Shown here piece by piece: positions 1 to 30,992 of a DNA stretch of 64,000 nt (the first letter of the stretch is position 1; each line of letters starts with the position of its first letter). Origin of the DNA: a virus. A program made the translations under genes and the position numbers. The notes under the pieces are model-generated. The model made no database searches and was not told where the DNA came from. It worked only from the letters and a program-made list of their open reading frames with translations. The DNA lies in IMG/VR virus record IMGVR_UViG_3300036770_006954, positions 64,001 to 128,000 of that record, one strand, 5' to 3'.

Positions 1-231
1 ATCATTTTTGAACCAAGATTGGTCCCTAACGATAAATTGAGTATTTTCACGAGCTCTTCTTTCCCAAACAAAACCTTCGAGTTCCTTTTCCCCAAAAATT
101 ATTAAGTTAGCATCGATTCGAAGTAGTTGTTCAAATTTATCTAAATAGTGTTGAAAAGAACGGGACCAACCCTCTTGAAGTTCATCTCGTTTAATATTCC
201 ATAAACCTGTGACAAATGTAATATTATTCAT
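1..231 (-). CDS. Partial (runs off window start) HtrL/YibB-like glycosyltransferase-related protein
   Basis: Manual translation from ATG at 231: MNNITFVTGLWNIKRDELQEGWSRSFQHYLDKFEQLL..., a typical HtrL/YibB-like N-terminus; start overlaps the stop of the upstream gene. Confidence 0.55.
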   Translation of the reverse strand, partial: MNNITFVTGLWNIKRDELQEGWSRSFQHYLDKFEQLLRIDANLIIFGEKELEGFVWERRARENTQFIVRDQSWFKND

Positions 232-1105
232 ATATGTTGTTAAATTCTTCAAATATTTTATAGAAACTTCTGTTTATAACAAAAAAATCCTCTTGTAATC
301 CCTTGATTCCTGAATCAGGAGACCACCAAACATCAAAAAATTTTTTATTGACTAATTCAGGATGGTTAAATGAAATTAATGTCATAATCAATTCTTCATA
401 TGGATGTTGATTATCTTCATCCATAATTCGTGTTAGGTAGTTGTCAAATAAATCGACCATTTGTCTCCATTTATCTCTGCGTCCACCGAACAATCCTCCA
501 ACAACATGTAAAGACCTATCATAATTGATATACCACTTTGGATTCACAGTTCCCGACCAATAATTTCTTTCATTGTCCTTGGCAATCATAAAAAATTTAT
601 CGCCAGTAAATTCAATTAAATTTTTCAACATTTCATTATTGAATTGATTACATTCGTAATACCTTTGTTCAATATGTTTTGAGGTCAGGTACTTATTTGG
701 AAACAAACCAACGTGTGACAATCCCGCGTCAATCCAATAATAATAATCATAAGACCCGTCTTCATAATCAAACCATTCGAATTTGGCGTATTGAATTTCT
801 AAACATCTATCACCCCTTTTGATTTCATCAACTTGTTTAATTGAATTTAATCTTTCAGAGTGTCTTGTTTTGGTTATATCGAAAACTCTGATTTCTAATT
901 TTTCTTTAGAAATTTGATGTTGATTGTAAAAAAAGTTGATAAGAGAATCATATTCTCTTTCTGAAGTGTAACATAAAAAGTCGGCTTCAGTCATTTTTAA
1001 CAACGACAATAGACTCCATCTATAGTGTCCGTTTCTACCTGGTCTTCCTCCCAAGTCAGTACCATTTAGGTCACTGTAGATACATGTAATAAACTTAGTT
1101 TTCAT
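224..1105 (-). CDS. HtrL/YibB (WlaTC)-like putative glycosyltransferase
   Basis: YYYWIDAGL motif, VVGGLFGG, EELIMT; lies in a GT operon. Confidence 0.55.
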   Translation of the reverse strand: MKTKFITCIYSDLNGTDLGGRPGRNGHYRWSLLSLLKMTEADFLCYTSEREYDSLINFFYNQHQISKEKLEIRVFDITKTRHSERLNSIKQVDEIKRGDRCLEIQYAKFEWFDYEDGSYDYYYWIDAGLSHVGLFPNKYLTSKHIEQRYYECNQFNNEMLKNLIEFTGDKFFMIAKDNERNYWSGTVNPKWYINYDRSLHVVGGLFGGRRDKWRQMVDLFDNYLTRIMDEDNQHPYEELIMTLISFNHPELVNKKFFDVWWSPDSGIKGLQEDFFVINRSFYKIFEEFNNIYE

Positions 1106-1830
1106 ATAGAAATTTCTGTGAAAATTTTATCCTGTTTAGTTTTAATATTTTGTGTAAGGTTCAGATACTCGGAAGGAATTTTGACTGGTGAATATTGGTT
1201 CCAATTATATGTTTGTGTATAAAAATTATTATAAACCCCATGTGACACATCTGACCAGTCACTAATTTGTGGTGCAATTGGTATTACGGGAGAATAACTT
1301 TGTTTTTTACTCATAATGAATTGATAAATAAAATCATCAATCGCATAATAACCCAAATTTTCTTTAGGTTCTAATTTCAAGACTTCATCGTAAACACTAT
1401 GGTGATAAATAATCATATTTGTTGCGAAGATACCTCTGTGGTGCTCCAATTTTGGTGGAAAATTTGTCAAATCCAATAAAGTTGAATATTGTTCACTTCT
1501 ATTAACAGGTCGATTTAGTGTTGGTGATAAATTAAATATACCGTAATCAATACCTTCAGTTTCGGTAGTAATTTTTTCAATAAGAGACTTGGCGTAGGGC
1601 ATAATTGAACAATCATCTTCAATCACCATTACCTCATCTAAACCTTTTTTAATTGCACTCTTTATTATCTCAATATGAGATAAAGAACAACCACCGTGGT
1701 CATTAGTATCTACAGCACTAAATCTTTCAAAGTCCCAACCAATATAATCCATTTCAAAATGAATGGATTGCATTCTGTCATGTCTTCTATCTAAATTGAC
1801 AACATACTTGTAAATTTTATTAATATCCAT
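1102..1830 (-). CDS. GT25-family glycosyltransferase
   Basis: YVVNLDRRHDR...RFSAVD...GCSLSH...VIEDD motifs. Confidence 0.8.
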   Translation of the reverse strand: MDINKIYKYVVNLDRRHDRMQSIHFEMDYIGWDFERFSAVDTNDHGGCSLSHIEIIKSAIKKGLDEVMVIEDDCSIMPYAKSLIEKITTETEGIDYGIFNLSPTLNRPVNRSEQYSTLLDLTNFPPKLEHHRGIFATNMIIYHHSVYDEVLKLEPKENLGYYAIDDFIYQFIMSKKQSYSPVIPIAPQISDWSDVSHGVYNNFYTQTYNWNQYSPVKIPSEYLNLTQNIKTKQDKIFTEISI

Positions 1831-3077
1831 TACAAGTTTCCTGTTAGACGGTCACACCAACCTTTTGACTCAGAGTGTGGCCATACAACCCAATAAGCCG
1901 GTTTTTGTGTTGTTTGGAACTCTCTCCAAATTTTACAATATTTGTCGGGGTCATTCATCATCCTCGAGATTTCAGCTTTGTCGGCATCCTTCCTAAATAA
2001 TGTCGAATCATCAGAACCATGGAATGCTACAACCCAAAAATCATAATCTTTTTCGGGTACACTAGCATAACCCACATCAATACAATGCTTGAACACTTGT
2101 GCAAAATCTTTTTTCCATTCTTCCTCGTTCTCGTAATTGTATGGGTTTGGGGGGTAATGTTTATCAATGGTATATTGTTGGACTGCTCTTTTCTCGAACA
2201 AAATCCCCGCATACTTTTCATAATCTCTCAGAGTCCTTTCAGTACCAAAACCATAAAGTCCATCATGACCTTCTTGAATTTCACCATCCATACCAAATAA
2301 TTTTCTGTTGGTAAGGTGAGACTTGTTGTTTTTATCGACCCATTGCTTGTCGTCATCCCATTGCTTGGTTCTACCCTTACGAGTGTATTCGTGCCAAATA
2401 AGAACCTTATGAGGGTGAAACAAATCATAACCCCAAGTGTATGCCCTTGCAGCAATCGAAATTTCCTCGCCATGAAAGTAATACTCAGGATTGTGTTGAA
2501 CCTCAGTTGAAAATTGTCCAAGAGTAAATGCATAGTGTGCTGAATAAAATCTTGCGGGAACGGGTTCTTTCATATCCCTCCAACCTGGAATTGTTTCAGG
2601 AAGGAAAAACACAGCGCCCTCAGGGATGAATCGGTCAAAAACCATTCTCCAAGGTTCTTGAACTCTTCCTGATGGGTCATTATCAGGGTCAAATGATGAA
2701 ACATATCCTGTTAGTAGGGGCTTTTTATGACCTTTTTTTTGAAGTTGTTTAACCATCTTTATCATTTCATCATCCCAATTTGGTGCAAACCTCATATGTG
2801 AATCAATTTGAAGTGTGTACTCTTCACCCTCATAAAGTTGTTGTGTTAGATTTCTCGCCCAACAAACTCCTTTCGAGTCTTCATATGGAATATTTAAAAT
2901 ACGAAAACGCTTATCGTTTTCATATTCAGTCAAATCATCAAACTTGTCGTCAGTATGAAATTGTCTTGAGATTGCAATTCTTAAATTTTTAGGTCTTTTA
3001 GCGTTCGCTATCATATCCCTCAAAGTGTGGATAAGTTGTGGGTCTCTATAAGAGGCAATTTGAACAAATATTTTCAT
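1830..3077 (-). CDS. GT60-like UDP-GlcNAc:polypeptide/hydroxyproline GlcNAc-transferase
   Basis: IFVQIASYRD, GVCWAR, LQIDSHMRF..WD, GEEI and WHEYTR motifs of the Gnt1/OGNT family. Confidence 0.8.
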   Translation of the reverse strand: MKIFVQIASYRDPQLIHTLRDMIANAKRPKNLRIAISRQFHTDDKFDDLTEYENDKRFRILNIPYEDSKGVCWARNLTQQLYEGEEYTLQIDSHMRFAPNWDDEMIKMVKQLQKKGHKKPLLTGYVSSFDPDNDPSGRVQEPWRMVFDRFIPEGAVFFLPETIPGWRDMKEPVPARFYSAHYAFTLGQFSTEVQHNPEYYFHGEEISIAARAYTWGYDLFHPHKVLIWHEYTRKGRTKQWDDDKQWVDKNNKSHLTNRKLFGMDGEIQEGHDGLYGFGTERTLRDYEKYAGILFEKRAVQQYTIDKHYPPNPYNYENEEEWKKDFAQVFKHCIDVGYASVPEKDYDFWVVAFHGSDDSTLFRKDADKAEISRMMNDPDKYCKIWREFQTTQKPAYWVVWPHSESKGWCDRLTGNL

Positions 3078-3137
3078 TAACTAAATTTTTACAAAAAAAA
3101 TAAGTATAATGAAAATAAAATGAATATTCCTTTTAAA

Positions 3138-3165
3138 CAAAAAACCCCTCACAAAGGAGGGGTTA
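3138..3165 (-). terminator. Intrinsic terminator after the Thr/Pro protein gene
   Basis: Minus strand ACCCCTC-loop-GAGGGGT followed by a T-run. Confidence 0.75.
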
Positions 3166-3167
3166 TT

Positions 3168-4187
3168 TTAACAAGGTGTTTCGTTATTTATGAATCCGTT
3201 TCCATTTATCACCTCGAACGCAGATGTTCCATCTGACCAATAACCATCATTTACAGGTGTAGTCAACGAGGTATCTAAGAATAAAAATTCACCTGTTGTT
3301 GGCCCTTGTGGTTGTGAGCTACTTGAGTAAACATTAAATGTTGTAACACTTGTACAAGCATCAATTGCTGTTGCCCCTGAGGTTAATAGATACGACCAAT
3401 AAGATATTGTTGGTGTTGGTGTCATACTTGTTGTAGGTGTATTCGTCGGAGTTTCTGTTGGCGTTGAAGTAATGGACGCAGTCAAACTAACGGTCGGCGT
3501 ATTAGTTGGTGTTTCTGTATTAGTTGGTGTGTTTGTTGGAGTTTGTGTCAAGGTTGGACAAACTGAAATAAATAAGAAATTCCCTGAAGAATCAACTTCA
3601 ATAACAATACCATTGAAATTATAGAAACCTGTCATATTGATTGTTGCTGGTCCTGCAGGAACGTTCGAGAGTAAAGATACATCCCCCCAAACAGAGTCGT
3701 TACCATATACCGTAATTGGTCCATTGATATTACCACACGCATCTAATAAAGTTGAACCGCTATAAACACTGAATGGAGTCAATGCTGGCGGAGTTACGCT
3801 AGGTGTGGGTGTGTTAGTTGGTGTTTCAGACGGCGTTTGGGTTGGGGTTTGTGTATTAGTCGTAGTGTTAGTTGGTGTGTTTGTTGGTGTCTCTGAAGGT
3901 GTTTGTGTTGGTGTATTTGTTGGTGTTTCTGAAGGTGTTTGTGTTGGGGTTGGCGTGTTTGTCGCACTTGGAGTTGGCGACATAGCAAACGGAAAGGAAC
4001 CAAAATCTGTAACAGTAATGATTGTTGGCATTGCTGTAGAATAGGTACCATCTATCAACCAAATATTGCAGGCATGTCCTGCGGGAAGTAAAACATCGTA
4101 TACCCACATTTGATTCGAACACTCTTGATATGAATAAACACCATTTGAAGATGTGTTATTAGTTAAAAGATATTTTCTACACGCCAT
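3168..4187 (-). CDS. Thr/Pro-repeat virion surface protein with a duplicated small Cys domain
   Basis: [12 protein letters not shown] repeats; two SGxT..DAC modules; late motif upstream. Confidence 0.6.
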
Positions 4188-4243
4188 TTTTTCGTTTTTT
4201 TAATAAATATTATAATATTTCAAATTATTTCAAGTCTGACTTT

Positions 4244-7200
4244 TTAACTTGGTGTGACTGTCGGTGTGGGTGTTGGTGTCACTGAAGTTTCACTTGGTGT
4301 TGCTGTGGGAGTTGGCGTTGGAATAACAAGGTCATTTTCTACTTCAATACCAATGTATATTAATTCACCACTAACAAAGTTAGTAGATGCCGATTGAATT
4401 AATCCTATATTACCCGAAGGTGTTGCTCCCGAGACAGTTCCAAACACAAAACCGTTATCTGAACCATTTTCCCAATACTTCAACGAATTCGAATCACCAG
4501 AATAAATTACCGTTGTGCCCGATTGTGTCATTGTAAAGAAAATAGTGTTACCCGTAAACTCAGAAAAATAATCTAATCGGTCAACATCATCTGAATCAAA
4601 TGAGTTGAAATACACTCCACTATTAGGAGAATTCAATAAATTCGGGTCCGTGATACCATTATCAATTATTGTATTTCCAGAAGTTGGTAGTCCTGAAGGA
4701 GATGTAATAAAGTTATAAGGAGCCGAACTTTGAATCTGTACATCAACTAAAGTAGTCAAAGTAATAGGGTACGAACTTGTGAGAGTTACCGATTGGCTGA
4801 CACTCGAGTCTAACAGAATTGTTTGATTATTCAGAACTGTTACAGTACCAGGAGGGTCCTGAACTCTTAGTGACGCTAATAAAGGTGTACCATTACCTGA
4901 GGGGGTTGAAGACAATCCAAGAGTGATTGTGTAAATACCCGAACTAGGATTTGCAGTATTATCAGTGTCAGCAATGTATTGGTTTCCACCACCTGCCGCG
5001 GGACATGGCCAAGGATTTTGTGGACCTATAGGTAACGAATTCACGTAGAATGTCGGTCTAGGAATACTGTTTATAGTAACATCGGTTATACTGGTAAATT
5101 GACTACAGTTCGAGATGTATAATTCAATTGGTCCCGTTGTTTGAGTTGGCGTTTGAGTATGAGTTGGAGTATTTGTCGGTGTTTCAGTATTGGTAGGTGT
5201 TGGAGTCTGAGTTGGCGTTTCAGTATTTGTTGGTGTTGGCGTTTCAGTATTTGTTGGTGTTGGGGTTTCAGTAGGTGTTTCAGTTGGTGTATTTGTTGGG
5301 GTTTCAGTATTGGTTGGTGTTGGAGTTGGAGTTTCTGAAGTTTCAGTAGGAGTTGGTGTTGGAGTTTCAGTAGGTGTCTCTGTATTTGTTGGTGTTGGTG
5401 TTGGAGTTTCTGAAGTTTCAGTAGGTGTTGGAGTTGGTGTTGTAGGTGGTAAACAACAATCAGTATCATAAACAACACTGACAGGTGTTGAACCCGATAA
5501 TACAACCAACGAATCTTTTTCGAAACAAAACTCAAATCTGAATCTTACAGTATCAGGATATGTTGTAGCCGTCAGGGTTCGGTTGTAAGTGTAAAGTCCA
5601 TCGCAACTAGTCATTTGAACTATCGTGTCACCAGTTATTTCTACTGATACAAACTGATAACATTCGTCCAAAACACAAGTAGCTGTTGGAGTCGGTGTCA
5701 TTGTTTCCGTTGGTGTGGGTGTAGAAGTTGTCGAAGTTTCGGTTGGTGTCGGAGTTGGTGTCGGAGTTACTGAGGTCTCAGTAGGTGTTGGGGTCGGACC
5801 ACCACAACAATCAAGAGCAACATAATATGCATAAATTATCCCTCCACCACCATCCCAATAATTGATGAGAACTGGTGGTGTCGATAAACATACTAGTCGT
5901 CCACTATATCCTGAGATTTGAACGGTTTCGGTTCCACCACTACAGTAAGTGAATTCCCAAGTGGCACCTGAAGCAACACCTCCGAACACCTCATACTCCA
6001 AACAACCCGCACAAGGTTGAGTTAAAGTTGGTGTTGGAGTTGGTGTTTGTGAAGATGTAACACTTGGTGTTGGAGTTGGTGTTGGTGGTGGTGAACAAAG
6101 GGCGACTTCAGTAATTTCAATCCAATTATTGTAAATATTGATTGTTCCTTCACATAGGCAAGTGGTAAATACTTGATAAGCCTCAAGGGTGTAATCAATA
6201 ATATTACCATTACAATCAGTGGCAGTAAAGACCGCAGGAATCGGTTCCAAATTCCTGAAAGTATACTCAACACAATTACATGCCGTAGGTGTAATTGTTG
6301 GTGTTGGCGTGTTTGAGGAAGTATTTGTTGGTGTCGGAGTATTTGATGATGTTGCCGTTGGTGTTAAATTTGCAGTGACACTAACTGTCGGACTATTACT
6401 CGGTGTTGGAGTTATGAAAACATTTCTACATGGTCCTACTCTTAAAACGGTTATATCAGAACAACTTGATGTTGGTGGTACACAAGCACATACATTTACC
6501 GAATCGAATTGTGAGAAAACGCTCAATCCAAAATAAGAAGGCCCTTGGCTCACAAAATTTCCGTTACAATCAACCCAATTAACGTTTTCACCACATGGGG
6601 TCGCACCCGTGAAATAAAGTGTATAAGTTTGACAATCACAACCACTTGTAGTCGGTGTTGGGGTGTTAGTTGGAGTAACAGATGGTGTTACTGTGTTACT
6701 TGGTGTTTGTGTATTAGTTGGGGTTTGAGTGACAGTGGGAGTCTGTGTGACAGTTGGCGTGACTGAAGAAGTAGGTGTTGGGGTTGGTAAATTACATCCA
6801 GCACCCAAATTAGTTTGTGTTGTTAAACAACTTGTGATTACACAGTCCCCACATATACAAACATAAATTGTTGAACCCGATGTGAAAACATTATCAGTAT
6901 ACTGTGGGAAATCTGATGCCGATTTAGTAATTAGAGTTCCAAAACAATCGATGTAACTAATCGTGTTTGAACAATTCTCATTAAATGTAACTTCAATAGT
7001 TTTACACTCACAAGGTGTTTCTGTTGGCGTTTGAGTTGGGGTAGATGTCACTGTTTCTGTTGGGGTAACTGTTGGAGTTGCAGTCATAGATGCTGTAACA
7101 GAAGGTGTTGGAGAAACTGACACACCTTCACAACAGTTGTTATAGAAAGAAGAATTCAATATACGGTCACTGTTTGCGTCATAAATTGTGGTCCCTGAAA

Positions 7201-9178
7201 TACAATTACCTTCCAATGGACCTAAGGTGACTGTATATGGGTATACACCCGTTGGTGACTCCAATGGGAAGAATCTGTTCCATGGACCAAACGACGCACA
7301 ATAAGTCATAACTGCGGTTGTAGGTCCGAGGATAAGAATATCAACGTTATTCCAACAATTAGTCGTTGCGCAAGTTGGTGTTGGCGATACTTCAAAAGTA
7401 TTTGTTGGTGTTGATGTGTTAGTTGGTGTAACTGTAGGTGTAGGGGTAGGGCAAGGGTCATCAAAAGGCCATGCAGAACCACCACCTCTACAAGGAGTAG
7501 AATATGAATTAACAGTTACTGCAGGACCACCAACAGTGCCTGTCACAAAACAATAATCGTCAAGATTATAAGTACCAATTGGTAAACCATCCAAAGTGAC
7601 AACAGATTCATCACAACAAGTCAATCCTGTAATAAATGCTGTTGATGCGGTTACAGTTATATTAACAATCGACGCACATCTTCCTGGTGGTGTCGGTGTA
7701 GGGGTTGGAGTTTGAGTTGCTGAATTTGTTGGTGTCGGTGATGCAAAAAACTGAGGACAAACCACATTAATAGCATCCAAGAAATTTCCACCTGCTTGTG
7801 CAGATGTTGCGGAAAACAATAATTGATAATTTTGTTCTTGTGCAACAAAATTAATAGTGTTAAAAGTCCATTGTCGGGTTACGGCAGTGTATTCTGTTGG
7901 GAAATAGATAAGACCTGTAGTTTGTCCACTAACTGCGACAACTAATGTATTTAAAAAGTCTTGTCTACCCATATGGGCAAACTGAATTTGGTATTGAGTT
8001 CCAGGTGTGGCGTAAAAGGCTTGAAATAACGCTTGTGGTGAGGCTAAATCGGCATTTACTTCGGCAAAATAATTACCTTCGTAGGCAAAATAATTTTGGA
8101 AACCACTTGGCCAAATTTCGATACTTTGGTCGGCAGCGGTGGTTTCCCAAAAAGGAATACAAAATTCAGGATAGAACCTTGGTTGGTTCGTAGAAGGTAA
8201 GCAAAATGATGTGCTTGTATTGAAATCTTCAAATGAAGTGTTTCCCAATCTTCCACAAGCTAAAGTTGGTGTGGGAGTCGGAGTTGCTGTTGGTGTTTGA
8301 GTTACCGTTGCAACAAACTGACATTCAGGAGCAGATGAGGCTCCTCCTACATATGTTCCGGTATTTTTGATGTATGTGAGACCATAAGGGGCAATTGGAT
8401 TAAACAACCAAACATCACCATTAGCGTTTGTTATGTATAAATCGTTATCATTTATAAACATTCCTAATGCATAAGGAATAGATGGTTGAACTATAAACTC
8501 CAACACCATTGCACCGGTTGAGTAGTTATAACCTCTTATGTAACCATCAACGGTTGTTGCATATAAAATGTTATTAGTTGTTAGAATCAAATCTCCATAA
8601 ACAACCCCTATTATATTGAATTTTGGCGTTACAACACCCGTAGTTGTGGTAATATCAATTTCAATCACGGTTAAACCACTTGTTGAAATCAATTTTGTAT
8701 TCGAAATTGCGGTCATACCTGCACCAAGTTCTACACCTGTTACTGCGATATTTCGGTTGTATAAAATCGAAAAAGGGTTCAGAGTAATATTATATTCGTA
8801 AATTGCTCCTGTGGTGTAGTATGCAGAATAAGTCCAAAGTTTTGTTGTTGTATTGGCAATATCTACACCATTACCCAAAATAGGTCCACCTAAAAATACT
8901 GATAAAGGTGTAACGGTATTACTCGAAAACTCGTAAATTGCACCCGGTGCTAAGAAAACCACACAGTCATCTAAAGAAGGTGGAGTAGTTGTGAATGAAT
9001 AATTGTAGTCGTATAAGGGTGAATAGACATCATAATCCCCAAAATAATAGGGGTTTAGGTAATTGAATGGGATTGTTTGTTCACCAATATCAATAGTTCC
9101 ACCACTATATGGGTTAAAAGTTACATTAACCGTTTGTCCGCTAAGATTATCACTTAAAACTCGAATTCCGACTGCCAT
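4244..9178 (-). CDS. Large (1644 aa) fibre/adhesin-like protein: beta-propeller-like and jelly-roll-like domains plus Cys-rich modules joined by TP linkers
   Basis: About 10 TPTPT linkers alternating with Cys-rich ~55-75 aa modules; NTSFE...AEVN...NFLD segment is carbohydrate-binding-like. Confidence 0.6.
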
Positions 9179-9213
9179 AATAATAAATACTCAATACCTC
9201 CAATTAGTTTTTA

Positions 9214-9780
9214 TCAACACACACCTGTATTGATAATTAATGTTCCACTTATTTGTATTATTTTTACACCATCCGAAATTGTAAAGTTTGCCCCAATTGG
9301 TGGAATAGTTAATTCACGATTACCATAAACATGGTCACCGACAGTTAATTGTCTAAAAGGCTTGGTTGAATACACAGTAACATTTGAAGGAAACCCTCCG
9401 AATTGATTTATTTGTTGACAAACATCTTGAAAATAACCACCCGTTCTTAAATTTTGGATGAAGACTGCTGAGGGGGTAACGGAAGGTGTTACAGTATTTG
9501 TTGGTGTTGGTGTTTGAGTGGTTGGGGTTTGACTCAAACTTACTGTTGGTGTTACTGTTGGTGTGATTGTTGGTGTTGGTGTTGAGGAGGGACAAGGACC
9601 TAAATTAACTATATTCAAAGGTGCCCCATAAGATTCAACCGTGATTGATTCTGCACAAATACTTTCAGAAAATAATGGTGCAATTTGAGTAATATTTACA
9701 CTACCTGTACAACCAGTCCATTTATAAAATCCCTCTTGTACGGAGTTATAATTTGTTATTCTATAGTATAGACAAGACAT
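9214..9780 (-). CDS. Cys module + TP linker virion protein
   Basis: Same Cys module type as 4244..9178 (CLYYRITN...WTGCTG...IC...GPC) followed by TP repeats. Confidence 0.55.
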   Translation of the reverse strand: MSCLYYRITNYNSVQEGFYKWTGCTGSVNITQIAPLFSESICAESITVESYGAPLNIVNLGPCPSSTPTPTITPTVTPTVSLSQTPTTQTPTPTNTVTPSVTPSAVFIQNLRTGGYFQDVCQQINQFGGFPSNVTVYSTKPFRQLTVGDHVYGNRELTIPPIGANFTISDGVKIIQISGTLIINTGVC

Positions 9781-9791
9781 TTTTCAATCAA

Positions 9792-10424
9792 TTAGAATGT
9801 CTTGTTTAAAACGAATAAATCACTGTAAATATAGTTCAATGGGTCGTCGCTACTAAATTGTACCGTAATGTCCAAAGTGTTTGAAATTGTTGTATCAAAG
9901 TCTGTATTATTCGTTGTTTGAAAGGCAGTTCCATATACTTGCCCGTTTCCTTTAACCACTTGAAAATTACCATGACTAGAAATTGACCCTACAGTAGGAC
10001 CACCAATATTACGAATTGTAAAAAAAACACTCATAAACCAATTATCGCCTGATGCCGCAGGGTCAAAAGATGCACTTGTTGCAAGTATAACAGAACCTGA
10101 CTTAAGTCTTATTGTAATATCATCATTAGTATTATTCAAAACACCACCCATAATGAGTTGAAAACTATCCCCAACTGAAAATCCATTTGCGGGTACACTC
10201 AATGTTCCAACCCCTTCACCAATTATTGTTGTTTCGGATGTTGTCCCACTTACAGTAACACTATTTCCTGTTTGAGAAAAAAGACCATAAACTTGAGGAT
10301 ATGGGTTCAGTGAACCTTGTTTTACTCTGTATGTTGTACCAGATTGTGCAACGGCAAATTCCGCATTGGGTGTTATTCCTGAAGATAATAACTCGGGAAG
10401 TTGAGAAATGGGTAAATTTGGCAT
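9792..10424 (-). CDS. Putative tail-fibre/accessory structural protein
   Basis: N-terminal PISQLP motif of the kind seen in phage fibre proteins; beta-rich C-terminus. Confidence 0.45.
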   Translation of the reverse strand: MPNLPISQLPELLSSGITPNAEFAVAQSGTTYRVKQGSLNPYPQVYGLFSQTGNSVTVSGTTSETTIIGEGVGTLSVPANGFSVGDSFQLIMGGVLNNTNDDITIRLKSGSVILATSASFDPAASGDNWFMSVFFTIRNIGGPTVGSISSHGNFQVVKGNGQVYGTAFQTTNNTDFDTTISNTLDITVQFSSDDPLNYIYSDLFVLNKTF

Positions 10425-10444
10425 TTTATTTTATAAATATTTGT

Positions 10445-13400
10445 TTATACGAAGTATTTCAAAACTATTATACCAGAGCCACCGTTTCCTCCCGCTCTTA
10501 CTCCTCCACTTGGATGTGAACCACCTCCTCCACCATTACCTGTGTTAGATACCGCATTAGCCCCTGTTACAACAGTATTTCCTCTTGCACCTGCACCACC
10601 TTTACCGTATTCAATTGAAGAACCTGTAATTGAGGATGTAAGTCCTGTACCTCCCGCACCACCTGAACTTGGATTATTAGGGGAACCGGCGCCGTTAGAA
10701 CCATTAGCGGTTGAACCTCCTCCTCCACCTCCGCATCCACCAACTGCACTACCCCAGTTTCCACCACCACTACCTCCTGTTGCAGCACTTACATTTGAAA
10801 CCTGTGAAAGTCCGGCAACTCCGACACCTCCGGGAGCAAGTCTACTACCTCCACCAGCACCACCACCGAGTGCCGTTATAGTGTCAAAGACTGAATTCGA
10901 ACCATCGGTTCCGTTAGTATTAACACCTGGAGTTGCGGCGCCACCCGTTCCACCTGAACCAACGGTGACCGTATATGAATTACCTGGAATTACAGATAAA
11001 ATTCCTGTTAGAACCATACCACCACCTCCACCAGCACCACCACCAGTATCGTACCCGTTACCACCACCACCTCCACCTGCAACAACAAGATATTCAACTG
11101 ATGTTACACCTGCAGGTGCTATCCAAGAAGTCGTACCAACAGTTGTGAATGATTCAATTGTTGGTGAGGGTGTTGTACTTGGTGTGGGCGTATTAGTTGG
11201 GGTTGTGGTTTGTGTTGGAGTTGGTGTTGGTTGTATTGGCTCTATCAAAATACCATTGGGTTCCTCACTTTCCTGAAGAATCATAAATAAATTTTCCTGA
11301 AGTAAAAATCCTTCGTTCGGTAAAGTACTGGTTGGTGTAGGTGTAACGCTACCTGTTGGAGTCAAAGTATTTGTGGGTGTTGGAGTTGGAGTGTTAGTGG
11401 GGGTTTCTGTCGGAGTATTAGTCGGAGTTTCTGTTGGAGTGTTGGTGGGACTTTCTGTTGGAGTGTTAGTGGGGGTTTCACTTGGAGTGTTAGTTTGAGT
11501 TGGGGTATTTGTTGGGGTTTCAGTATTTGTTGGCGTAGGAGTGTTAGTTGGGGTTTCAGTATTTGTTTGCGTTGGGGTGTTAGTTGGGGTTTCAGTATTT
11601 GTTGGCGTAGGAGTGTTAGTTGGAGTATTTGTTGGTGTTGAGGTTGATGTGGTTGTATTAGTTGGGGTGTTAGTTGGTGTAGAGGTCGATGTTACAGTTG
11701 GTGTAGGAGTTGCCAATAACTCAAAAGTGTATCCTGTTGTGAATGTATAGTTGAATCTACTAGTCCCCGAATAGTTAGAAGTTATTGAGGTGTATTGTGC
11801 ATCTCTAGTTAGATTTCTGTAATTGAAATCTAAAGAAGAAAATTCATAACCCCTTGTCTGACCTGATGGAATTAGAATTGTAACATTTTCAGTGATTGGT
11901 TCACCAACGAATGTGTCGAGTTGTATTGTAAATGATATTGATAAATCTACATCAACTGGCAACTGACTTTGAGCAATATAATTTGACTGTACGGACCCTT
12001 GATAAAATTCAGAAAGTAAATCAATGTTGTTTCCCTCTAACTCCAAGTAAGTTAAATCATTGTTGGGGATGGGGATTGAAATAATGTCACCATCAGGTAT
12101 AACAAGATAAGCTAGCTCTTCGTCAGGAATAACAATGTATTCTAAATCATTTGATGGTACTATAATTACACAATCAGGACAATCGGGATTTAACAACCCA
12201 TATTTCGGTTTCAAAATCCTAAAATTATGTTTTACTTCAGAGGCATCCAAAGGTTCAACATACATTCTAAAGGCACTTACTTCACCAATAAAACTACCCG
12301 CAAAAATTTCTTCCAAAAATATGTTTGTCGTGAGACCCGAATATATTGTATTATCTAAGTCTTCAGTTGTTAAACACTCAGGGTCTTGTTGATAAATTAT
12401 ATCAGAAATCTCAGGAGGACACCCTCCTGAAAAAGTAAGATTATCTTTGAGTCCTTGTGTACCCCCACCAACTGATATATTGAATGGTACACCAACTTGA
12501 CGCTCTTTAAACGTGTTTAGTGGTCTTGGAATAATTTCTTCAAAGTCTTCACATACCATCAATAATTTACCATTTACAAAAATTTTGAGAGTACCAAGTC
12601 GGTATTCTCTCTCTTGTAACCATAAGTCATTGATATGGACTTGAGTTGTTTTCGCAGGGGTATATCCTGAATAACCTTCTTCGTGGGTTATTGGTGGCAT
12701 TACCAAACTAACACTATTATTCGCCGAGGTTGCGGTAAAAACATCTTGTTCAATAACCCCTAAACCTCCAAGATAAGATAAATCTTTACACTCAAAATAG
12801 GCATTTCGTTCGAATACGGCATCAATTTGCACCCAGTGTTCAAAATTAATATAAGGTGTAAACTTACAATCTTCAAAAATACCACGGGTAGAACACCATT
12901 CTACAGTGGTCACACCAGTTACAAAACTTGTTCCTGTAAGACAAGTACCTGATGGTATACAACTTCCTGTAATCAAATATTCCTTTACACAAACTCTCGG
13001 GTTACCAGTGTCACCACTAAATCTGATTGACATGGCATTGGATACACCATCGTATAAAGGGTCCAATTCTTTAATTGATGCTTCGGTGGTACAACTACAC
13101 GGGCATCCACAAGTGCAATTCGACGATGTCACACCTGAGGGTTGGTATACTGGAATGCAATCTGCACCTGTTCCTCCTGATACTGCACAAGCACAGGTGT
13201 GCATACAGGTCAAACCCGAGGTCACTCTTGTATAACCTGTGTCGGAGGATGGACTTCCATCGGCGTAGTGGTAAAATTTGTTTTCAGCTCTACTACCCAT
13301 GAAAAAGAATGTTCCTTTGTTCTCAGGATAACGGGCATTTAAACCAATATTTGTATTACCTGTGAACTGATATTTCAATAACATCTCCACAGTCCAACCT

Positions 13401-14026
13401 TGACTCATTCTTGTTGGAAAAACTTCATAATCATAACCTTGGAGTTTGTAAAAACCCTGATAAAAACCACCTTGTAGTTTCGCCACCGTTCCGATGTTTC
13501 CACCGACATTTACATAATCCAAATCGTAAGAGTAAGAATTGTCATTCCATAGACGATTTTGGGGTGTGGTGTTTCCACTAATCGGATGCATTTTAAACCT
13601 TCGGTCGTAAACATATCTGTTGAAAGTTTCGGCGGTTGTGGTATAAAGACCTGTGTATGCGGTCATGGTGATACCCGACATTTGGGTTGTTAATCCATTG
13701 TCAATACCCGTTAAACCCACATCACAAATTTCGGTGGTTACAGGACAGAAGTTTGGGTCAACATCTAAAGGGTTATAAAAGTTTTCTGAAACAACAGTGT
13801 CATAAAGAAATTGACCAACTAAAGGAGATATGGTTGTCCCTGTTGAATTAAAATCAAACTTAAATGGCATCCTATTACCATCATCTTCAGCAATTAATAA
13901 AGGTGAGAAAATAACCTCTTGATGGAAGTCTCGGGCGTCGTCTGCCAAACAGAAATCTGTAATTTCATTGACAGGTTTTAACCCAATCTTCCTGTAATTG
14001 TATTGATTGATATTTTGGTATGCCAT
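10445..14026 (-). CDS. Virion structural protein: LamG/ConA-like N-region, TP stalk, C-terminal glycine-rich fibre domain
   Basis: Long TPTNTPTET tract (about 11320-11710); [22 protein letters not shown]...[10 protein letters not shown] glycine-rich domain. Confidence 0.65.
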
Positions 14027-14035
14027 AAACTATAT

Positions 14036-14064
14036 GATAAATACCCTTCTTTTGAGTATTTATA
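14036..14064. promoter_or_regulatory. Back-to-back divergent late-promoter motifs
   Basis: GATAAATA at 14036-14043 (TATTTATC on minus) and TATTTATA at 14057-14064, between divergent genes. Confidence 0.65.
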
Positions 14065-14075
14065 GTTAAAAAAGT

Positions 14076-14876
14076 ATGCTGAAATTAAACGAGGAATATT
14101 TCGGTTCAAATTATTACTTTCTCCTCCGTGAAAAGAAGGACAGCGGACACCTTTGGTTTTCCGTTGCAAATACAATAACGGAAGCAAGAAAAAAAGATGA
14201 GTATATTAAAGTACCAAAAGAGAAAATTGAAAAGCTCAAAAGTCATTTGAATAAACTGATTAAGAGTAAGACCAAGAAAAAACCAAACGAAATCAAAAGT
14301 GAAATTGAAGAGTTGGTAAACTCAGATGGGACTTTGTCAAATTCAAACGTTCCAATCTTAGACCCTCGGTTACACCCAAGAAAAACTATGGACCAAACTG
14401 TCCAAGCAACTACACAACCAGGTAATTACTTGGCTTGGTCTTACAGAGGTGGAAGAACATATTACTCAGAATCTGAAATGAAAGAAGAAGATATGTCAGC
14501 GGCTTTCGGTTATGAAGAAACAAAAGACATGACTCCTGAGGAAACTATTAAAACTCTTGAAAAAATGGGAGTTGAGAATCCTGTAGAAAGAGCAATTGAA
14601 TTCGGAAAGGACCCAAAAATTTCTCAAAAAAATAAAAAAAAGGGTAGTGATATGAAAATTCGTCTACAAGAAAAAGAAACCTTAAGACGAATTCAAAAAG
14701 AGCAAATGGCTAAAATAATTGAAGACATTTTGGTTAATAAGAAAAATAAAGAAGATATTGTTGGTAAAAAAAAGGGTAAAGAAGTTCTAACTAAAGCGGA
14801 AATTATGGATTTAATCAAGAAAAACGAACCCGTTGAAAATATCGATAAAGTTATAAAATCATCTCGTGAACAGTAG
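14076..14876 (+). CDS. Hypothetical Lys/Glu-rich protein, possibly head-internal
   Basis: ORF with late motif upstream; LNE/ITE/LQE motifs. Confidence 0.6.
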   Translation: MLKLNEEYFGSNYYFLLREKKDSGHLWFSVANTITEARKKDEYIKVPKEKIEKLKSHLNKLIKSKTKKKPNEIKSEIEELVNSDGTLSNSNVPILDPRLHPRKTMDQTVQATTQPGNYLAWSYRGGRTYYSESEMKEEDMSAAFGYEETKDMTPEETIKTLEKMGVENPVERAIEFGKDPKISQKNKKKGSDMKIRLQEKETLRRIQKEQMAKIIEDILVNKKNKEDIVGKKKGKEVLTKAEIMDLIKKNEPVENIDKVIKSSREQ

Positions 14877-16685: not shown

Positions 16686-17900
16686 ATGTCACAAATCAAT
16701 GTATTAGTAATACCATCTGACCGATTTGGTGTTGGAAAATTTAGGTCAATTGAACCTCATACTTTTCTTCAAAATAAATTCCCTCAAGACTTTCACATTG
16801 AAATAGATTTAAATCCTCCTATGGATGATTTGGACTTTTACAAAAAGTTTCAAATTGTTGTTTATCACAGAAGTATTACTAATGAATTCGAGAAGTCATA
16901 TGTACTTGTAGAAAATCTGAAGAAAATGGGTATTGTCACAGTGTGTGATATGGACGATTATTGGAATCCCACCAAGGACCACCCAATTCACGATATCATT
17001 ATTTACAATAAGATTAACGAAAAAATTGTTGCTAGTATCAAACAATCCGATTGGGTAACAACGACAACGCCATTGTTTGCGGATGAAATTAGGAAATACA
17101 ACAAAAATGTGTTTGTACTTCCTAACGCAATAAATCCTGATGAGGCACAATTCAAAGAACCAACAACAGAACATGAAAAACTTAGAGTAGGTTGGTTAGG
17201 TGGTTCATCTCATTTGTCAGACCTTCAACTTTTAGATTCTTCGTTTGCTAAGCTCAGTCAAAATTATAAAGATTTGCAATTTGTTATATGTGGTTTCGAC
17301 ACAAGAGGTACTATTACTGAGATAAATGCTCAGACAGGTGAGCACAAAAAACGACCAATTCGACCTGAGGAAACTGTTTGGGCACGCTACGAAGAAATCT
17401 TCACACAAAACTACAAGTATGTTAGTTCAGAGTATGAAAAGGTTTTGAAAAAATATGCTCGGGAAGAATATCCCGAATTTTCCAATGAGTCTTATCGTAG
17501 GGTGTGGACTCTTCCTGTGACATCTTATGCAAGAAATTACGCCAAACTTGATGTATCTTTGGCACCAATTAAAAACCACATGTTCAATCGAATGAAGTCA
17601 CAACTCAAAGTGATTGAGGCGGGATTTTACAAAAAGGCTGTGATTGCAACTGACTTAGGTCCATATACAATTGATTTGAAACATTGTCTTAAAAATGGCG
17701 AATTTACCGATGGTAATGCTCTTTTGGTCGATGAGAATAGAAATCATGGTGATTGGGCAAAGTTTATTATAAAACTTCAAAAAAATCCAAATCTTGTCAA
17801 AGACATGGGGGAACGATTGTATGAAACTGTATCAAAAAAGTATGACTTAAATATTGTTACTGTTGAAAGAGCGGATTTTTACAAAAGTCTAATTAAATAA
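16686..17900 (+). CDS. GT-B (GT4-like) glycosyltransferase
   Basis: DMDDYW, VGWLGGSSH, LAPI...FNRMKSQLKVIEAG. Confidence 0.8.
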   Translation: MSQINVLVIPSDRFGVGKFRSIEPHTFLQNKFPQDFHIEIDLNPPMDDLDFYKKFQIVVYHRSITNEFEKSYVLVENLKKMGIVTVCDMDDYWNPTKDHPIHDIIIYNKINEKIVASIKQSDWVTTTTPLFADEIRKYNKNVFVLPNAINPDEAQFKEPTTEHEKLRVGWLGGSSHLSDLQLLDSSFAKLSQNYKDLQFVICGFDTRGTITEINAQTGEHKKRPIRPEETVWARYEEIFTQNYKYVSSEYEKVLKKYAREEYPEFSNESYRRVWTLPVTSYARNYAKLDVSLAPIKNHMFNRMKSQLKVIEAGFYKKAVIATDLGPYTIDLKHCLKNGEFTDGNALLVDENRNHGDWAKFIIKLQKNPNLVKDMGERLYETVSKKYDLNIVTVERADFYKSLIK

Positions 17901-17910
17901 AAAAAAACAA

Positions 17911-18621
17911 ATGATTAAAACACCAATAAACAAAATTCTTTTTTTGGACATCGAAACCGTAGGTCTTGAAAAGAATTATGATGACTTACGAACCAACCAC
18001 CCGAGAATCGCAGACCAATTCGACAAATATTTTGATTGGTTTCTGAAAAGATTTCCCGAAGACAAGGAAATTAAGGAAGACCAAAAAAATATTGTTTTTG
18101 CAACTCGAGCGGCACTTGTCCCTGAATTTGCCAAAGTTGTTTGTGTTAGTGTTGCATTTGTGCTAAACAACGGGGAAGTAAAGAGACAGACCTTTTCAGG
18201 TGATGATGAAAACCAACTTCTACGAGATTGTCAAAATCTTTTGGATAGATGTGGAAAATTGGATTTTTGGTTATGTGGTCATAACCTCAAAAATTTTGAT
18301 ATTCCTATGCTCGCAAAAAGAATGTTGATTCAAAACATCCTTCCACCCTCCATTCTTCCTTCTTACGACACAAAACCTTGGGAGGTTAAAGCAATCGATA
18401 CAAAAGAGGTATGGCAGTTTGGTGCGTACACGGCAATCGGCTCGTTAGATTTACTATGCGCTTGTATGGATGTACCATCACCTAAAGAAGGTGAAGTTAC
18501 TGGTTCAAAAGTACATGATGCATATTGGAATAAAAACATGTTAAAAGAAATTGCCGAATACTGTGAACGAGATGTACAGGTATTGGTGGATGTAATTCAA
18601 AAATTAAAATCTTTGAAATGA
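17911..18621 (+). CDS. DEDD 3'-5' exonuclease (PolB-exo-like)
   Basis: FLDIET, GHNLKNFDIP and YCERDV Exo I-III motifs. Confidence 0.85.
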   Translation: MIKTPINKILFLDIETVGLEKNYDDLRTNHPRIADQFDKYFDWFLKRFPEDKEIKEDQKNIVFATRAALVPEFAKVVCVSVAFVLNNGEVKRQTFSGDDENQLLRDCQNLLDRCGKLDFWLCGHNLKNFDIPMLAKRMLIQNILPPSILPSYDTKPWEVKAIDTKEVWQFGAYTAIGSLDLLCACMDVPSPKEGEVTGSKVHDAYWNKNMLKEIAEYCERDVQVLVDVIQKLKSLK

Positions 18622-19238
18622 ACGATAACCAAGATAATCTTGACGATTTAATCGACGCAGAATTGCAGAAGTTAATCGAAGAAGTCGAAAAATTAACTTT
18701 CAATCCTTCAAGTTCAGAAAGCGAGTCTGAAGATGAAAAAACTCTGAATAAAAGTTTATCAGAGTTGGATGATTTTATGGAGGAGGAATTTTTAAAAATT
18801 GAACTTCCTTTACACAAATTTCACCCTGATGCGATAGTACCTTCATATGCGTATAGTTTGGATTCGGGATTTGATTTATTCAGTACCGAGGAAGTATGTT
18901 TATTACCTTTTGGTAGGGCATTAGTACCAACAGGTTTGGCATTTGAAGTACCTGATGGTACAGAGCTTCAGATACGAAGTAAAAGTGGTCTTGCAATCAA
19001 TCAAGGTTTAATGGTCTTGAATAGTCCGGGAACTGTTGATTGTGGATACCTTGGCGAAATCAAGGTGATTGTTATGAACATGAACGATTATACGGTTACA
19101 ATTGAAAAAGGAACAAAAGTAGGTCAAGGAGTTTTGTGCCCCGTTTACAACGGTAAACGAGTTAAACTAATCGAAAAAGAAAGTTTAGGCACCTCGGACC
19201 GAGGAAATAAAGGATTTGGTAGTACAGGTTTGAAATGA
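18618..19238 (+). CDS. dut: Trimeric dUTPase with acidic N-terminal extension
   Basis: SGFDL, RSKSGLA, GTVDCGYLGE, RGNKGFGSTG. Confidence 0.95.
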   Translation: MNDNQDNLDDLIDAELQKLIEEVEKLTFNPSSSESESEDEKTLNKSLSELDDFMEEEFLKIELPLHKFHPDAIVPSYAYSLDSGFDLFSTEEVCLLPFGRALVPTGLAFEVPDGTELQIRSKSGLAINQGLMVLNSPGTVDCGYLGEIKVIVMNMNDYTVTIEKGTKVGQGVLCPVYNGKRVKLIEKESLGTSDRGNKGFGSTGLK

Positions 19239-20869: not shown

Positions 20870-21589
20870 ATGACTATTTTGACTACAGCATATAATTGTG
20901 AACCTTTTATTGAGAGGTGTCTGTATAGCATAATGTCACAGCAATTCAGAGATTTTACTTGTTATATTTTGGACGACATGTCAACTGATGGTACCACAAA
21001 AAAAGTCAAAGAAATAATCCAAAATGACTCGAGATTCGTTCTAATCGAAAATACAAAGAAATTATATCAACCAGGAAACTATGATTTAGTAATACGGTAC
21101 ATGAATTTATCTGATGATGAAATATGTGTAGAGGTCGATGGCGATGATTGGTTACCAAATTCTAAGGTATTTTCAAGGATTAATGAAATTTACAGTTCTG
21201 AAAATATTTGGATGACCAGCGGTTCATTCAATTATCATAATGGTAGACCTGGTTTTGCCAGTCCCCCCACTTCTGTAGAAAATTTAAGAAAACAAACATT
21301 CACATTGTCTCATCTTAGAACTTGGAAGTCTTGGTTATGGAAAAAAATTGATGAGAATGATTTAAAAAATGAAACTGGTGAGTATTGGTCAGTTGCCGGT
21401 GACTTGGCATTTATGTTCCCGATGTTGGAAATGTCAGGAATGGAACATTTCAAATTTATCTCCGAAATTTTGTACACATACAATGAATCGAACCCTTTAA
21501 ATGACCATAAAGTTAATATGTCAAATGTTAATAAAACAACTACATTAATAAGAAATAAATCTCCTTATACAAGAATTAAAAATGAATAA
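20870..21589 (+). CDS. GT2 glycosyltransferase
   Basis: TTAYN, DDMSTD, VDGDD. Confidence 0.85.
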   Translation: MTILTTAYNCEPFIERCLYSIMSQQFRDFTCYILDDMSTDGTTKKVKEIIQNDSRFVLIENTKKLYQPGNYDLVIRYMNLSDDEICVEVDGDDWLPNSKVFSRINEIYSSENIWMTSGSFNYHNGRPGFASPPTSVENLRKQTFTLSHLRTWKSWLWKKIDENDLKNETGEYWSVAGDLAFMFPMLEMSGMEHFKFISEILYTYNESNPLNDHKVNMSNVNKTTTLIRNKSPYTRIKNE

Positions 21590-23446: not shown

Positions 23447-23447
23447 T

Positions 23448-23882
23448 ATGTTAGTTATTCGTGATTTTGAAAGAAATGACTCTACAAGCGGGTTATTAAA
23501 AACACTTAAAGAAGTGTGGTCAGTTGATGAAATAAATGAATCAACATTAGATAAATGGTTTAAGAATGATAATCACATGGTAATTGCGGAGTTTAATGGT
23601 GAAATTGTTGGTTCAGCAACTTTACATTTACAACAAAAAATTATTCGTAATGGTGGTATTGCTGGATGTATTGAAGATGTTGTAGTTAGAGAGGATTATA
23701 GAGGAAATAACATTGGCACTCAATTAATACAAGAATTAATTAAAAAGGCTGAAAATTTTGGGTGTTATAAAATAATTTTATCTTGTTTTCCTGAAAGGAT
23801 TAATTTTTATAAAAAAAATGGATTTAATCAAGAGTCAATAACTATGAGATTCGATTTAAAAAAATTAGAAAAAAATGTATAA
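23448..23882 (+). CDS. GNAT acetyltransferase, GNA1-like (glucosamine-6-P N-acetyltransferase)
   Basis: KIIRNGG.AGCIEDVVV...RG.NIG...GCYKIILSC...FYKKNGF. Confidence 0.75.
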   Translation: MLVIRDFERNDSTSGLLKTLKEVWSVDEINESTLDKWFKNDNHMVIAEFNGEIVGSATLHLQQKIIRNGGIAGCIEDVVVREDYRGNNIGTQLIQELIKKAENFGCYKIILSCFPERINFYKKNGFNQESITMRFDLKKLEKNV

Positions 23883-24675: not shown

Positions 24676-24677
24676 CT

Positions 24678-28157: not shown

Positions 28158-28163
28158 TAATTC

Positions 28164-29135: not shown

Positions 29136-29141
29136 TTAGAA

Positions 29142-30946: not shown

Positions 30947-30992
30947 AAGGTTTTTTTTCTTTATTTTACCACTATTTTGGTAAAAAAACATT

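Follow-up and report, generated by a model that had tools for sequence, protein, structure and literature searches.

Gene organization of the locus

The DNA analyzed here (the window, 64,000 nucleotides) covers bases 64001-128000 of the 171.6-kb IMG/VR viral contig G000, and coordinates prefixed with G000 refer to the whole contig. At the start of the window lies a run of minus-strand genes in which a putative glycosyltransferase (GT) of family GT60 (1830-3077) follows a block of genes encoding proteins with long Thr/Pro (TP) tracts. On the minus strand, the order is 10445-14026, 9792-10424, 9214-9780, 4244-9178, and 3168-4187, then an intrinsic terminator, GT60, a GT25-family gene (1102-1830), a gene for a 293-aa protein (224-1105), and a gene that we call HtrL563. 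The last of these runs past the window start, with its 5′ part at 1-231 (start at 231/252); the whole minus-strand gene is at G000 62561-64231 and encodes 556-563 aa. Beyond HtrL563 and outside the window are a 132-aa open reading frame (ORF) and then the gene for DNA polymerase B. An earlier interpretation made from the letters of the window (the sequence-only reading) had proposed that these genes form a phage-encoded mucin-type O-glycosylation system. For comparison, we used 80 of 370 viral contigs encoding close GT60 relatives (77-93% identity) and the gene neighborhoods of 96 phage loci.

The GT60 enzyme

The minus-strand gene at 1830-3077 encodes a 415-aa protein that is assigned, from its Pfam match and predicted fold, as a GT60-family enzyme and putative polypeptide alpha-N-acetylhexosamine (HexNAc) transferase. 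It matched PF11397 (GlcNAc) with an E value of 4e-68 (231 bits, cut-off 21) over profile positions 95-351 and an N-terminal stretch. An AlphaFold2 model built from 14 homologues had a pLDDT of 85, and a fold search with this model returned the GT27 polypeptide GalNAc-transferases first (Foldseek E 4e-11), in agreement with a Z-score re-alignment. GT27 entries occupied ranks 1-29, with Z scores of 19-21.5 over ~275 residues and a root-mean-square deviation of ~3.5 Å, and the next GT-A family reached a Z score of 16.9. Identity between the model and its GT27 matches was only 10-13%, and a sequence search against PDB chains gave no match, so that the link to GT27 comes from the fold alone. Q90, D92, and H94, which make up the DxH motif, were invariant in the 14 sequences, some of which are only 27-42% identical; a metal-binding DxH motif is typical of GT27. 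Residues ~328-415 form a beta-rich C-terminal extension, and a Pfam profile search found no ricin-type lectin domain or other Pfam domain in the protein. Profile and model together place the enzyme in GT60, with mucin-type initiators as the closest solved folds, in line with the GT60-like enzyme that the sequence-only reading had placed here.

No hydrophobic segment was found in the GT60 protein, and its N-terminus opens straight into the first strand of the fold. Because of these two features, the enzyme should be soluble and cytoplasmic. Characterized GT60 enzymes are polypeptide alpha-GlcNAc transferases that are related to GT27 and have no C-terminal ricin-type lectin domain, and they initiate mucin-type glycans in Dictyostelium and Trypanosoma cruzi (PMC8724618). 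A soluble cytosolic GT60 form modifies Skp1, a single target protein in Dictyostelium, which carries a hydroxyproline-linked glycan initiated by this GT60-type polypeptide alpha-GlcNAc transferase (PMC8724618). Among the relatives of the window enzyme, a 799-aa protein on a 310-kb contig (L216:8390-10789, contig G013) has a divergent GT60 domain (30% identity) fused to a long extra C-terminal region.

Thr/Pro-tract proteins

TP tracts, which are (TPTx)n repeats, were located by script in exactly five genes of the window, all on the minus strand (3168-4187, 4244-9178, 9214-9780, 10445-14026, and 56952-57830), and three further TP genes lie on the contig outside the window. Four of the five are directly upstream of GT60 in the same orientation. 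The script thus recovered both the four co-oriented genes and the distant fifth gene named in the sequence-only reading, with the additions that one gene inside the block (9792-10424) has no tract and that the terminator intervenes before GT60. The tracts of the five genes total 727 residues, of which 41% are Thr, 25% Pro, and 8% Ser. They are encoded by mixed synonymous codons, which indicates that the tract is maintained at the protein level. The DNA pattern for TPTxTPT had 101 matches on the contig, and the reversed pattern had none. In a beads-on-a-string arrangement, the tracts separate small Cys-containing modules (49-100 aa) and larger terminal domains from one another. Judged from their sequences, they have the composition and position of mucin-type acceptor domains, being dense in Thr/Ser with Pro and lying outside folded domains. 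Signal peptides were not found on any of the TP proteins.

The 339-aa protein nearest to GT60 (3168-4187, phrog_15511) contains three small Cys-containing modules and tracts at residues 66-108, 110-141, and 240-262. In the 1644-aa beads-on-a-string protein (4244-9178), nine TP tracts, 331 aa in all, alternate with small Cys-rich modules, and residues 341-470 weakly match DUF642, which is carbohydrate-binding-like. A single tract, at residues 59-105, was found in the 188-aa protein (9214-9780), whose homologues are located upstream of GT60 in 13 related loci. The tract-free 210-aa protein within the block (9792-10424, minus strand) matches no family, and its gene is preceded by the motif TATTTATA 15 nt upstream.

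The 1193-aa fibre-like protein (10445-14026) consists of a conserved N-terminal domain (residues 1-794), which is kept upstream of GT60 in 39 of the 96 phage loci, tracts at residues 795-903 and 928-962, and a glycine-rich C-terminal domain of the tail-fibre type. It matched PF21722 (82 bits), phrog_2295, and phrog_863 ("tail fiber assembly"). A protein-atlas search with the N-terminal domain gave only a ConA/LamG-like lead, and tblastn with the C-terminal half gave no match, probably owing to low-complexity masking. The 292-aa TP-tract protein (56952-57830) is encoded beside head and packaging genes, and its upstream TATTTATA is shared with the portal gene. From these matches and positions, the TP proteins may be virion components, either fibre-like proteins or decorations.

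HtrL563 and the variable cassette

HtrL563 matched PF09612 with 56 bits (cut-off 24.1) over residues 10-258, and TIGR02192 with 66 bits. Because the latter score is below the NCBIfam equivalog cut-off of 265, the profiles identify HtrL563 as a member of the HtrL/YibB family and not as a YibB orthologue. Its predicted structure (pLDDT 89) contains two GT-A domains, the first of which (residues 1-267) is similar to GT6 blood-group transferases (Z 13-13.7) and the second (residues 285-554) to B4GALNT1, GnT-I, and POMGnT1 (Z 14-15); these values indicate a GT-A fold only and not specificity. Whole-chain matches were other two-domain glycosyltransferases, namely LH3, Mimivirus R699, LARGE1, and K4CP. 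W136-x-D138 and E381-D382-D383 were invariant.

Between GT60 and HtrL563 lies a variable cassette, which in the window consists of two minus-strand genes. The first (1102-1830) had been read as a GT25 gene, and PF01755 supported this (E 1e-10, 42 bits, cut-off 24), although the match covers only profile positions 68-135 of 199. The second (224-1105) encodes the 293-aa protein, which shares 25% identity with HtrL563 over 133 aa including the WIDAG region (pairwise E 1e-5) and has no Pfam or NCBIfam match at E 0.01. The sequence-only reading had counted two HtrL-like genes here; HtrL563 is one by profile, and the 293-aa protein is left with a weak pairwise similarity. An HtrL563 homologue was found downstream of GT60 in 87 of the 96 phage loci, the 293-aa protein in 54, and GT25 in 43. 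Since GT25 is present in only about half of the relatives, the fixed partner of GT60 is HtrL563 and not GT25. Cassettes of other relatives carry acetyl-, methyl-, carbamoyl-, and fucosyl-type enzymes. In one locus (L035), genes for a GNAT, a hexapeptide acyltransferase, DegT aminotransferases, an FkbM methyltransferase, and a GT10-like enzyme stand between GT60 and the downstream GT25, 293-aa protein, and HtrL563 genes, and these gene types are the same as those of a separate sugar island in the window.

Co-distribution of GT60 and TP tracts in viruses

In nearly every related contig with enough upstream DNA, GT60 was immediately preceded by one to four TP genes in the same orientation, and these genes varied widely in number and in size, from ~100 to ~2,200 aa. 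In only one of the 80 contigs was a TP gene found downstream of GT60. The conserved frame of the locus is therefore the fibre-like N-terminal domain, variable TP genes, GT60, a variable cassette, HtrL563, and the DNA polymerase B gene.

Among 50,697 phage records, GT60 was found in only four (XacN1, Xoo-sp13, CM1, and RAS14; 44-48% identity), and full-length HtrL563 was found in the same four only. The TPTxTPT pattern had 51 matches in XacN1 and 22 in RAS14, and the reversed control had none. No match was found in seven GT60-negative large phages (LR756508, Mel-JY01, immuto, S-RIM2, SCTP-2, Atu_ph07, and RaK2), the first four of which are capsid relatives of the window phage.

A sample of viral contigs of at least 50 kb was also chosen only by the pattern TPTxTPTxTPT (n=29 among the matches listed) and compared with contigs chosen by the reversed pattern (n=11 among the matches listed), which were smaller on average. 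Among the matches listed, PF11397 was present in 14 of the 29 TP-chosen contigs and in none of the 11 controls (Fisher p 0.004, a value that ignores kinship among the contigs). The GT60 proteins of nine positives fall in the clade of the window, and those of the others are 59, 39, 32, 30, and 29% identical to the window enzyme. Co-distribution of GT60 and TP tracts had been set beforehand as a test by the sequence-only reading, and it was observed both in this comparison and in bacteria, where 25 TP genes near GT60 compare with one farther away.

The cultured relatives also bear on a route in which a phage 2-oxoglutarate-Fe(II) oxygenase would hydroxylate prolines of the tracts and GT60 would then add GlcNAc, as for Skp1. 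Two PF13640 (P4H-type) oxygenases are encoded on the contig (G000 161630-161893, minus strand, and 164948-165244, plus strand), and the hydroxyproline-linked glycan of Skp1 is begun by a GT60-type enzyme (PMC8724618). However, these genes are ~97-100 kb from GT60, XacN1 and RAS14 have GT60 and TP tracts but no PF13640, and the GT60-negative Mel-JY01 has one. With five other phages checked, PF13640 oxygenases did not track GT60; we rejected them as candidates and consider a hydroxyproline-linked variant very unlikely.

The GT60 module in bacteria

When one genome of each prokaryotic species was scanned, 534 stretches with a GT60 relative were found, of which the best 80 (35-72% identity) were examined. 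The top matches came from Saprospiraceae and other Bacteroidota. The phage module is ~71% identical to a Saprospiraceae chromosomal copy; genes for BamA-like, OmpA, and UvrB proteins show that locus L348 belongs to a genuine chromosome, which has the same GC content of 34%. Because the module is widespread in bacteria and so similar to the Saprospiraceae copy, the system is not specifically eukaryote-like, as the sequence-only reading had described it, and is better regarded as captured from bacteria. A full-length HtrL563 homologue adjoins GT60 in ~35 of the best 80 loci, and the two are fused in three (L415, L422, and L390).

Bacterial TP genes were counted as non-shadow ORFs with tracts of at least 30 aa, in similar amounts of DNA near to and far from GT60. 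Among the best 80 of 534 stretches, 25 TP genes (in 21 loci) lay within 4 kb of GT60 and one lay more than 5 kb away (p 7e-7), which is a 24-fold local enrichment. The 21 loci belong to Bacteroidota, Gemmatimonadota, Planctomycetota, Verrucomicrobiota, Acidobacteriota, Actinomycetota, beta- and gammaproteobacteria, and a deltaproteobacterium, and at least eight phyla are represented among the bacterial loci. Many of the bacterial TP neighbors start with an RR-type signal, and one ends in a type IX secretion system (T9SS) sorting domain; the RR-type signals fit modification before export. From these gene arrangements, GT60, HtrL563, and a TP protein look like an undescribed bacterial glycosylation module (for example, L348:8504-13092, L369:8941-15145, and L415:10220-13546, within the range L347-L426). 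Some bacterial TP genes have a sulfotransferase, carbamoyltransferase, or FkbM methyltransferase gene beside them. In Gemmatimonas loci L361, L362, L365, L367, and L370, the ORF just upstream of GT60 encodes a small protein with a hydrophobic stretch and a long Ser/Thr/Pro tail, whose N-terminal domain looks like the PqqD/RRE type.

Jiulongibacter sediminis, of which the cultured strain JN14-9 carries the module, has a TP protein gene followed by genes for GT60, a carbamoyltransferase, and an FkbM-HtrL563 fusion, and the same enzymes are found in the same order from ORF334 to ORF330 of XacN1. This arrangement bears on whether GT60 and its partners might decorate hydroxymethylated bases of phage DNA. 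The cluster is beside DNA polymerase B here and near DNA polymerase and RNase H genes in XacN1, and phage GT-A enzymes acting on DNA are known (10.1101/2023.12.21.572611). A bacterial chromosome, however, shows the GT60-carbamoyltransferase-HtrL563 order beside a TP protein, which argues that the XacN1 carbamoyltransferase decorates a glycan rather than DNA. In addition, the sole thymidylate-synthase homologue of the phage keeps the dUMP-specific Asn (LGDTHLYLNH), no TET/JBP gene was found on the contig, which is ~57% complete, and GT60/PF11397 is unmentioned in papers on phage DNA glycosyltransferases (including 10.1101/2023.12.21.572611). DNA as the target is therefore extremely improbable.

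Glycosylation of fibre-like proteins as the proposed function

The families and folds of the two enzymes, the TP tracts, their co-location, and their co-distribution were computed directly. We consider it the best interpretation of these results, with a probability of roughly 0.6, that the phage O-glycosylates the TP linkers of its own fibre-like virion proteins in the cytoplasm. Under this proposal, a module captured from bacteria would serve cytoplasmic mucin-type O-glycosylation of phage structural proteins. The soluble GT60 enzyme would move the first HexNAc (alpha-GlcNAc by family precedent) from a UDP-sugar onto Thr/Ser of the (TPTx)n linkers, and the acceptors would be the signal-less beads-on-a-string fibre-like proteins, modified during synthesis in the host cytoplasm. 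HtrL563, with its two GT-A domains, would lengthen the chain, and the lineage-variable cassette (here GT25 and the 293-aa protein) would diversify the glycan. The sugar island may add activated sugars and further transferases (GDP-mannose dehydratase, epimerase/reductase, GT10, and GT11). Under a coat of glycans, the linkers of hypervariable fibres or decorations would become stiff and resistant to proteases, and surface recognition would be altered. Inferred elements of the scheme are the acceptor and sugar, the sequence of the steps, and the presence of the TP proteins in the virion.

Several points weigh against this interpretation. TP linkers commonly occur as unglycosylated spacers, and the placement of the TP proteins in the virion is suggested by weak homology and gene position. 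Neither for this phage nor for any prokaryotic GT60 is a glycan, glycopeptide, or transferase activity on record. Nine of the 14 GT60-positive contigs in the TP-chosen sample come from one clade, and the control contigs were smaller on average. Five near-complete viral genomes (G001, G005, G012, G018, and G027) have TP tracts and no GT60, so that GT60 is not required for TP tracts, and in XacN1 the nearest TP gene is ~9 kb from GT60. Transcription signals point in the same direction. A strong intrinsic terminator (3164-3143, minus strand; an 8-bp GC-rich stem followed by a T run) stands right after the stop codon of 3168-4187 and splits the TP genes from GT60, so the two are co-oriented yet probably not on one transcript. 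GT60 also lacks the TATTTATA motif that precedes the portal gene and several TP genes, and because of this and the terminator its timing may differ from that of the TP genes.

In an alternative reading, the TP tracts would be unmodified spacers and GT60 and HtrL563 would act on another target, such as a cytoplasmic host protein or a different phage protein, with the adjacency arising from shared ancestry and a hotspot of accessory genes by the fibre genes. The tract-bearing genomes without GT60, the terminator between the two gene sets, and the predominance of one clade among the GT60-positive phage contigs all speak for such unrelated neighbors, and the cytosolic GT60 of Dictyostelium modifies one protein, Skp1 (PMC8724618). 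However, the adjacency is seen again in bacteria of at least eight phyla, with its local enrichment, and in phages with a GT60 as divergent as 29-48% identity. Since it recurs in bacteria and in divergent phages, ancestry within one clade is insufficient to explain it, and we regard such unrelated neighbors as quite unlikely.

The sugar island and remodeling of the host surface

The nucleotide-sugar and glycosyltransferase island (16686-34829, plus strand) had been recognized in the sequence-only reading as an 18-kb stretch, and its gene content was confirmed: three GT2, a GT4-like enzyme, GT10, GT11, a GDP-mannose dehydratase, an epimerase, two DegT, a GNAT, a CmcI methyltransferase, and a HAD-nucleotidyltransferase. 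A connection of the island with the GT60 module is inferred. Genes for a PolB-type 3′-5′ exonuclease, dUTPase, and PhoH are scattered inside the island (17911-19238 and 31383-32108, plus strand).

Such clusters are usually read as changing the host surface, and Iyer et al. interpreted the sugar-gene clusters of jumbo cyanophages in this way (PMC7824862). The targets of the GT60 cluster and the island would then be the lipopolysaccharide (LPS), the capsule, or glycoproteins on the surface of the host, a change that could serve to prevent superinfection, and the TP tracts would be mere linkers. GT25 and HtrL/YibB are families known from LPS loci, the cassette varies among relatives as O-antigen loci do, and the bacterial TP neighbors are surface proteins exported through T9SS or RR-type signals, so the phage copy could act on host TP proteins. 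In contrast, the window encodes no polytopic membrane protein, hence no flippase, polymerase, or ligase, and no initiating phosphoglycosyl transferase; GT60 enzymes are known solely as polypeptide transferases (PMC8724618); and host-surface remodeling leaves unexplained why GT60 phages have dozens of TP tracts and their GT60-negative relatives none. It is an unlikely primary function for the cluster, and we favor glycosylation of the TP linkers of the phage itself.

Phage lineage, host, and other features

CheckV estimated the completeness of the contig at 57%, so the 171.6-kb sequence probably belongs to a jumbo phage with a genome of ~300 kb. The contig has a GC content of ~35%. A T4-like head module in the window includes genes for the major head protein, protease, portal, and large terminase, and the nearest records by major capsid protein are a 484-kb uncultured phage, Microcystis phage Mel-JY01, and Flavobacterium phage immuto. 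A nucleotide search with window positions 1-14100 gave no match in the phage collection. Only 53-70% of the major head protein (43595-45388, minus strand, 597 aa) aligns with its nearest relatives, in two pieces, a pattern suggestive of an inserted domain. A 674-aa homologue of an AAA+ ATP-dependent protease (59614-61638, plus strand; phrog_4871, 792 bits) is unusual phage cargo.

The phage is a large one of freshwater origin, and metagenomes contain more than 7,000 distinct genes closely related to its GT60 gene, so the lineage is very abundant in the environment. Outside the window, G000 4156-7179 (minus strand, locus L339) encodes a 1007-aa TP-tract protein with SprB repeats (PF13573), which are known from gliding adhesins of Bacteroidota. 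This gene, together with the top bacterial GT60 matches from Saprospiraceae/Bacteroidota and the like GC content of chromosomal locus L348 (34%), suggests that the host is Saprospiraceae-like and that the GT60 gene was taken from the host.

The motif TATTTATA was found in sense orientation 11-42 nt upstream of ~23 genes. The portal gene, several of the TP genes, and many genes of unknown function are among them; GT60 is not. Example sites are 10432-10439, 47043-47050, 51456-51463, 57844-57851, 39850-39857, and 63200-63207. It is a candidate phage promoter element, perhaps a late one. A T4-type late promoter for 10445-14026 was considered and rejected; the lone TATAAATA upstream, read on the other strand, is a TATTTATA site, and the divergent gene 14076-14876 is the more probable target of that site.

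Significance

Taking phages and bacteria together, GT60, HtrL563, and a Thr/Pro-tract acceptor might constitute an undescribed, prokaryote-wide cytoplasmic mucin-type O-glycosylation system, a proposal to which we give slightly less than an even chance. Bacteria would use it on RR-signal or T9SS surface proteins before export, it would have been acquired by the abundant jumbo phages of freshwater and by the XacN1 group to coat hypervariable fibre proteins with glycans, and it would be a prokaryotic relative of GT60/GT27 initiation in eukaryotes. If true, phage virion glycosylation would reach beyond the actinobacteriophages, a function could be given to two prokaryotic families that have so far been left unstudied (bacterial/phage GT60 and the HtrL563 type), (TPTx)n would be a specific, testable acceptor motif, and it would follow that bacteria have a mucin-type pathway in their cytoplasm. 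A glycan coat on the fibres could influence the host range of phages, their resistance to proteases, how sticky the particles are, and how phages are recognized by the immune system. The hypothesis is directly testable, because the GT60 carriers XacN1, Xoo-sp13, RAS14, and CM1 are cultured.

Comparison with known systems

Giant viruses decorate virion surface proteins, such as chlorovirus Vp54 and the Mimivirus fibrils, by virus-encoded nucleotide-sugar synthesis and glycosyltransferases (PMC9614988). They differ from the window phage in their eukaryotic hosts and in their GT families and linkages, and homology extends at most to the generic GT-A fold. In mycobacteriophages (Che8, cluster O), phage glycosyltransferases and methyltransferases act in the cytoplasm on virion proteins of the phage itself, which yields a glycan shield (Freeman 2023, as cited in PMC11256854 and PMC11600133), and an HtrL/YibB-annotated gene is located near GT genes of an F1-cluster phage (PMC10453261). 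The acceptors there are capsid and tail-tube subunits rather than long TP-tract fibre proteins, and no GT60 homologue was found in any mycobacteriophage record among the 50,697 phage records. The mycobacteriophage system is proven by experiment, whereas that of the window is proposed from its genes.

The GT60 enzymes of protists (Dictyostelium GntB/Gnt1 and Trypanosoma cruzi OGNT) resemble the window enzyme in PF11397, in a GT-A fold nearest to GT27, in DxH, and in having no ricin-type lectin domain. They also provide a soluble cytosolic precedent, the Skp1 enzyme, and their known acceptors include Thr/Pro-rich mucin domains (PMC8724618). Unlike them, the window enzyme is viral/prokaryotic and has an unrelated beta-rich C-terminal extension of ~90 aa, and its partner HtrL563 is absent from the protist pathways. 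GT27 enzymes are the best structural match across the whole catalytic domain, but the phage enzyme has no lectin domain, falls outside the GT27 Pfam family, and cannot be Golgi-resident.

A further case is the Xanthomonas jumbo phage XacN1, whose virions have at least two Schiff-stained protein bands that are unassigned to proteins, and for which ORF328 and ORF334 were proposed as the glycosyltransferases responsible (PMC5852040). These bands are an experimental hint, and an indirect one, that TP tracts may carry O-glycans. XacN1 shares with the window homologues of GT60 (ORF334, 48% identity) and HtrL563 (ORF330, 41%) and many (TPTx)n tracts in large structural-region proteins. We located these tracts in ORF232-237 and ORF384, in ORF369-372, which directly follow the tail sheath genes, and in ORF325, a neighbor of the baseplate wedge genes. 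It differs in phage lineage and host, in a cassette with a carbamoyltransferase, and in that its GT60 gene is not directly beside a TP gene. The glycoproteins, the GT family, and the TP tracts were left unnamed in that study (PMC5852040), and a full-text literature search found no paper on phage GT60/PF11397 with such a partner and acceptor. Virion glycosylation encoded by phages is thus already known in mycobacteriophages and has been suggested for XacN1 (PMC5852040). The present comparison would identify the initiating enzyme (GT60, GT27-like) and the two-domain enzyme that constantly accompanies it, and would add a (TPTx)n acceptor suggested by co-location in phages and bacteria.

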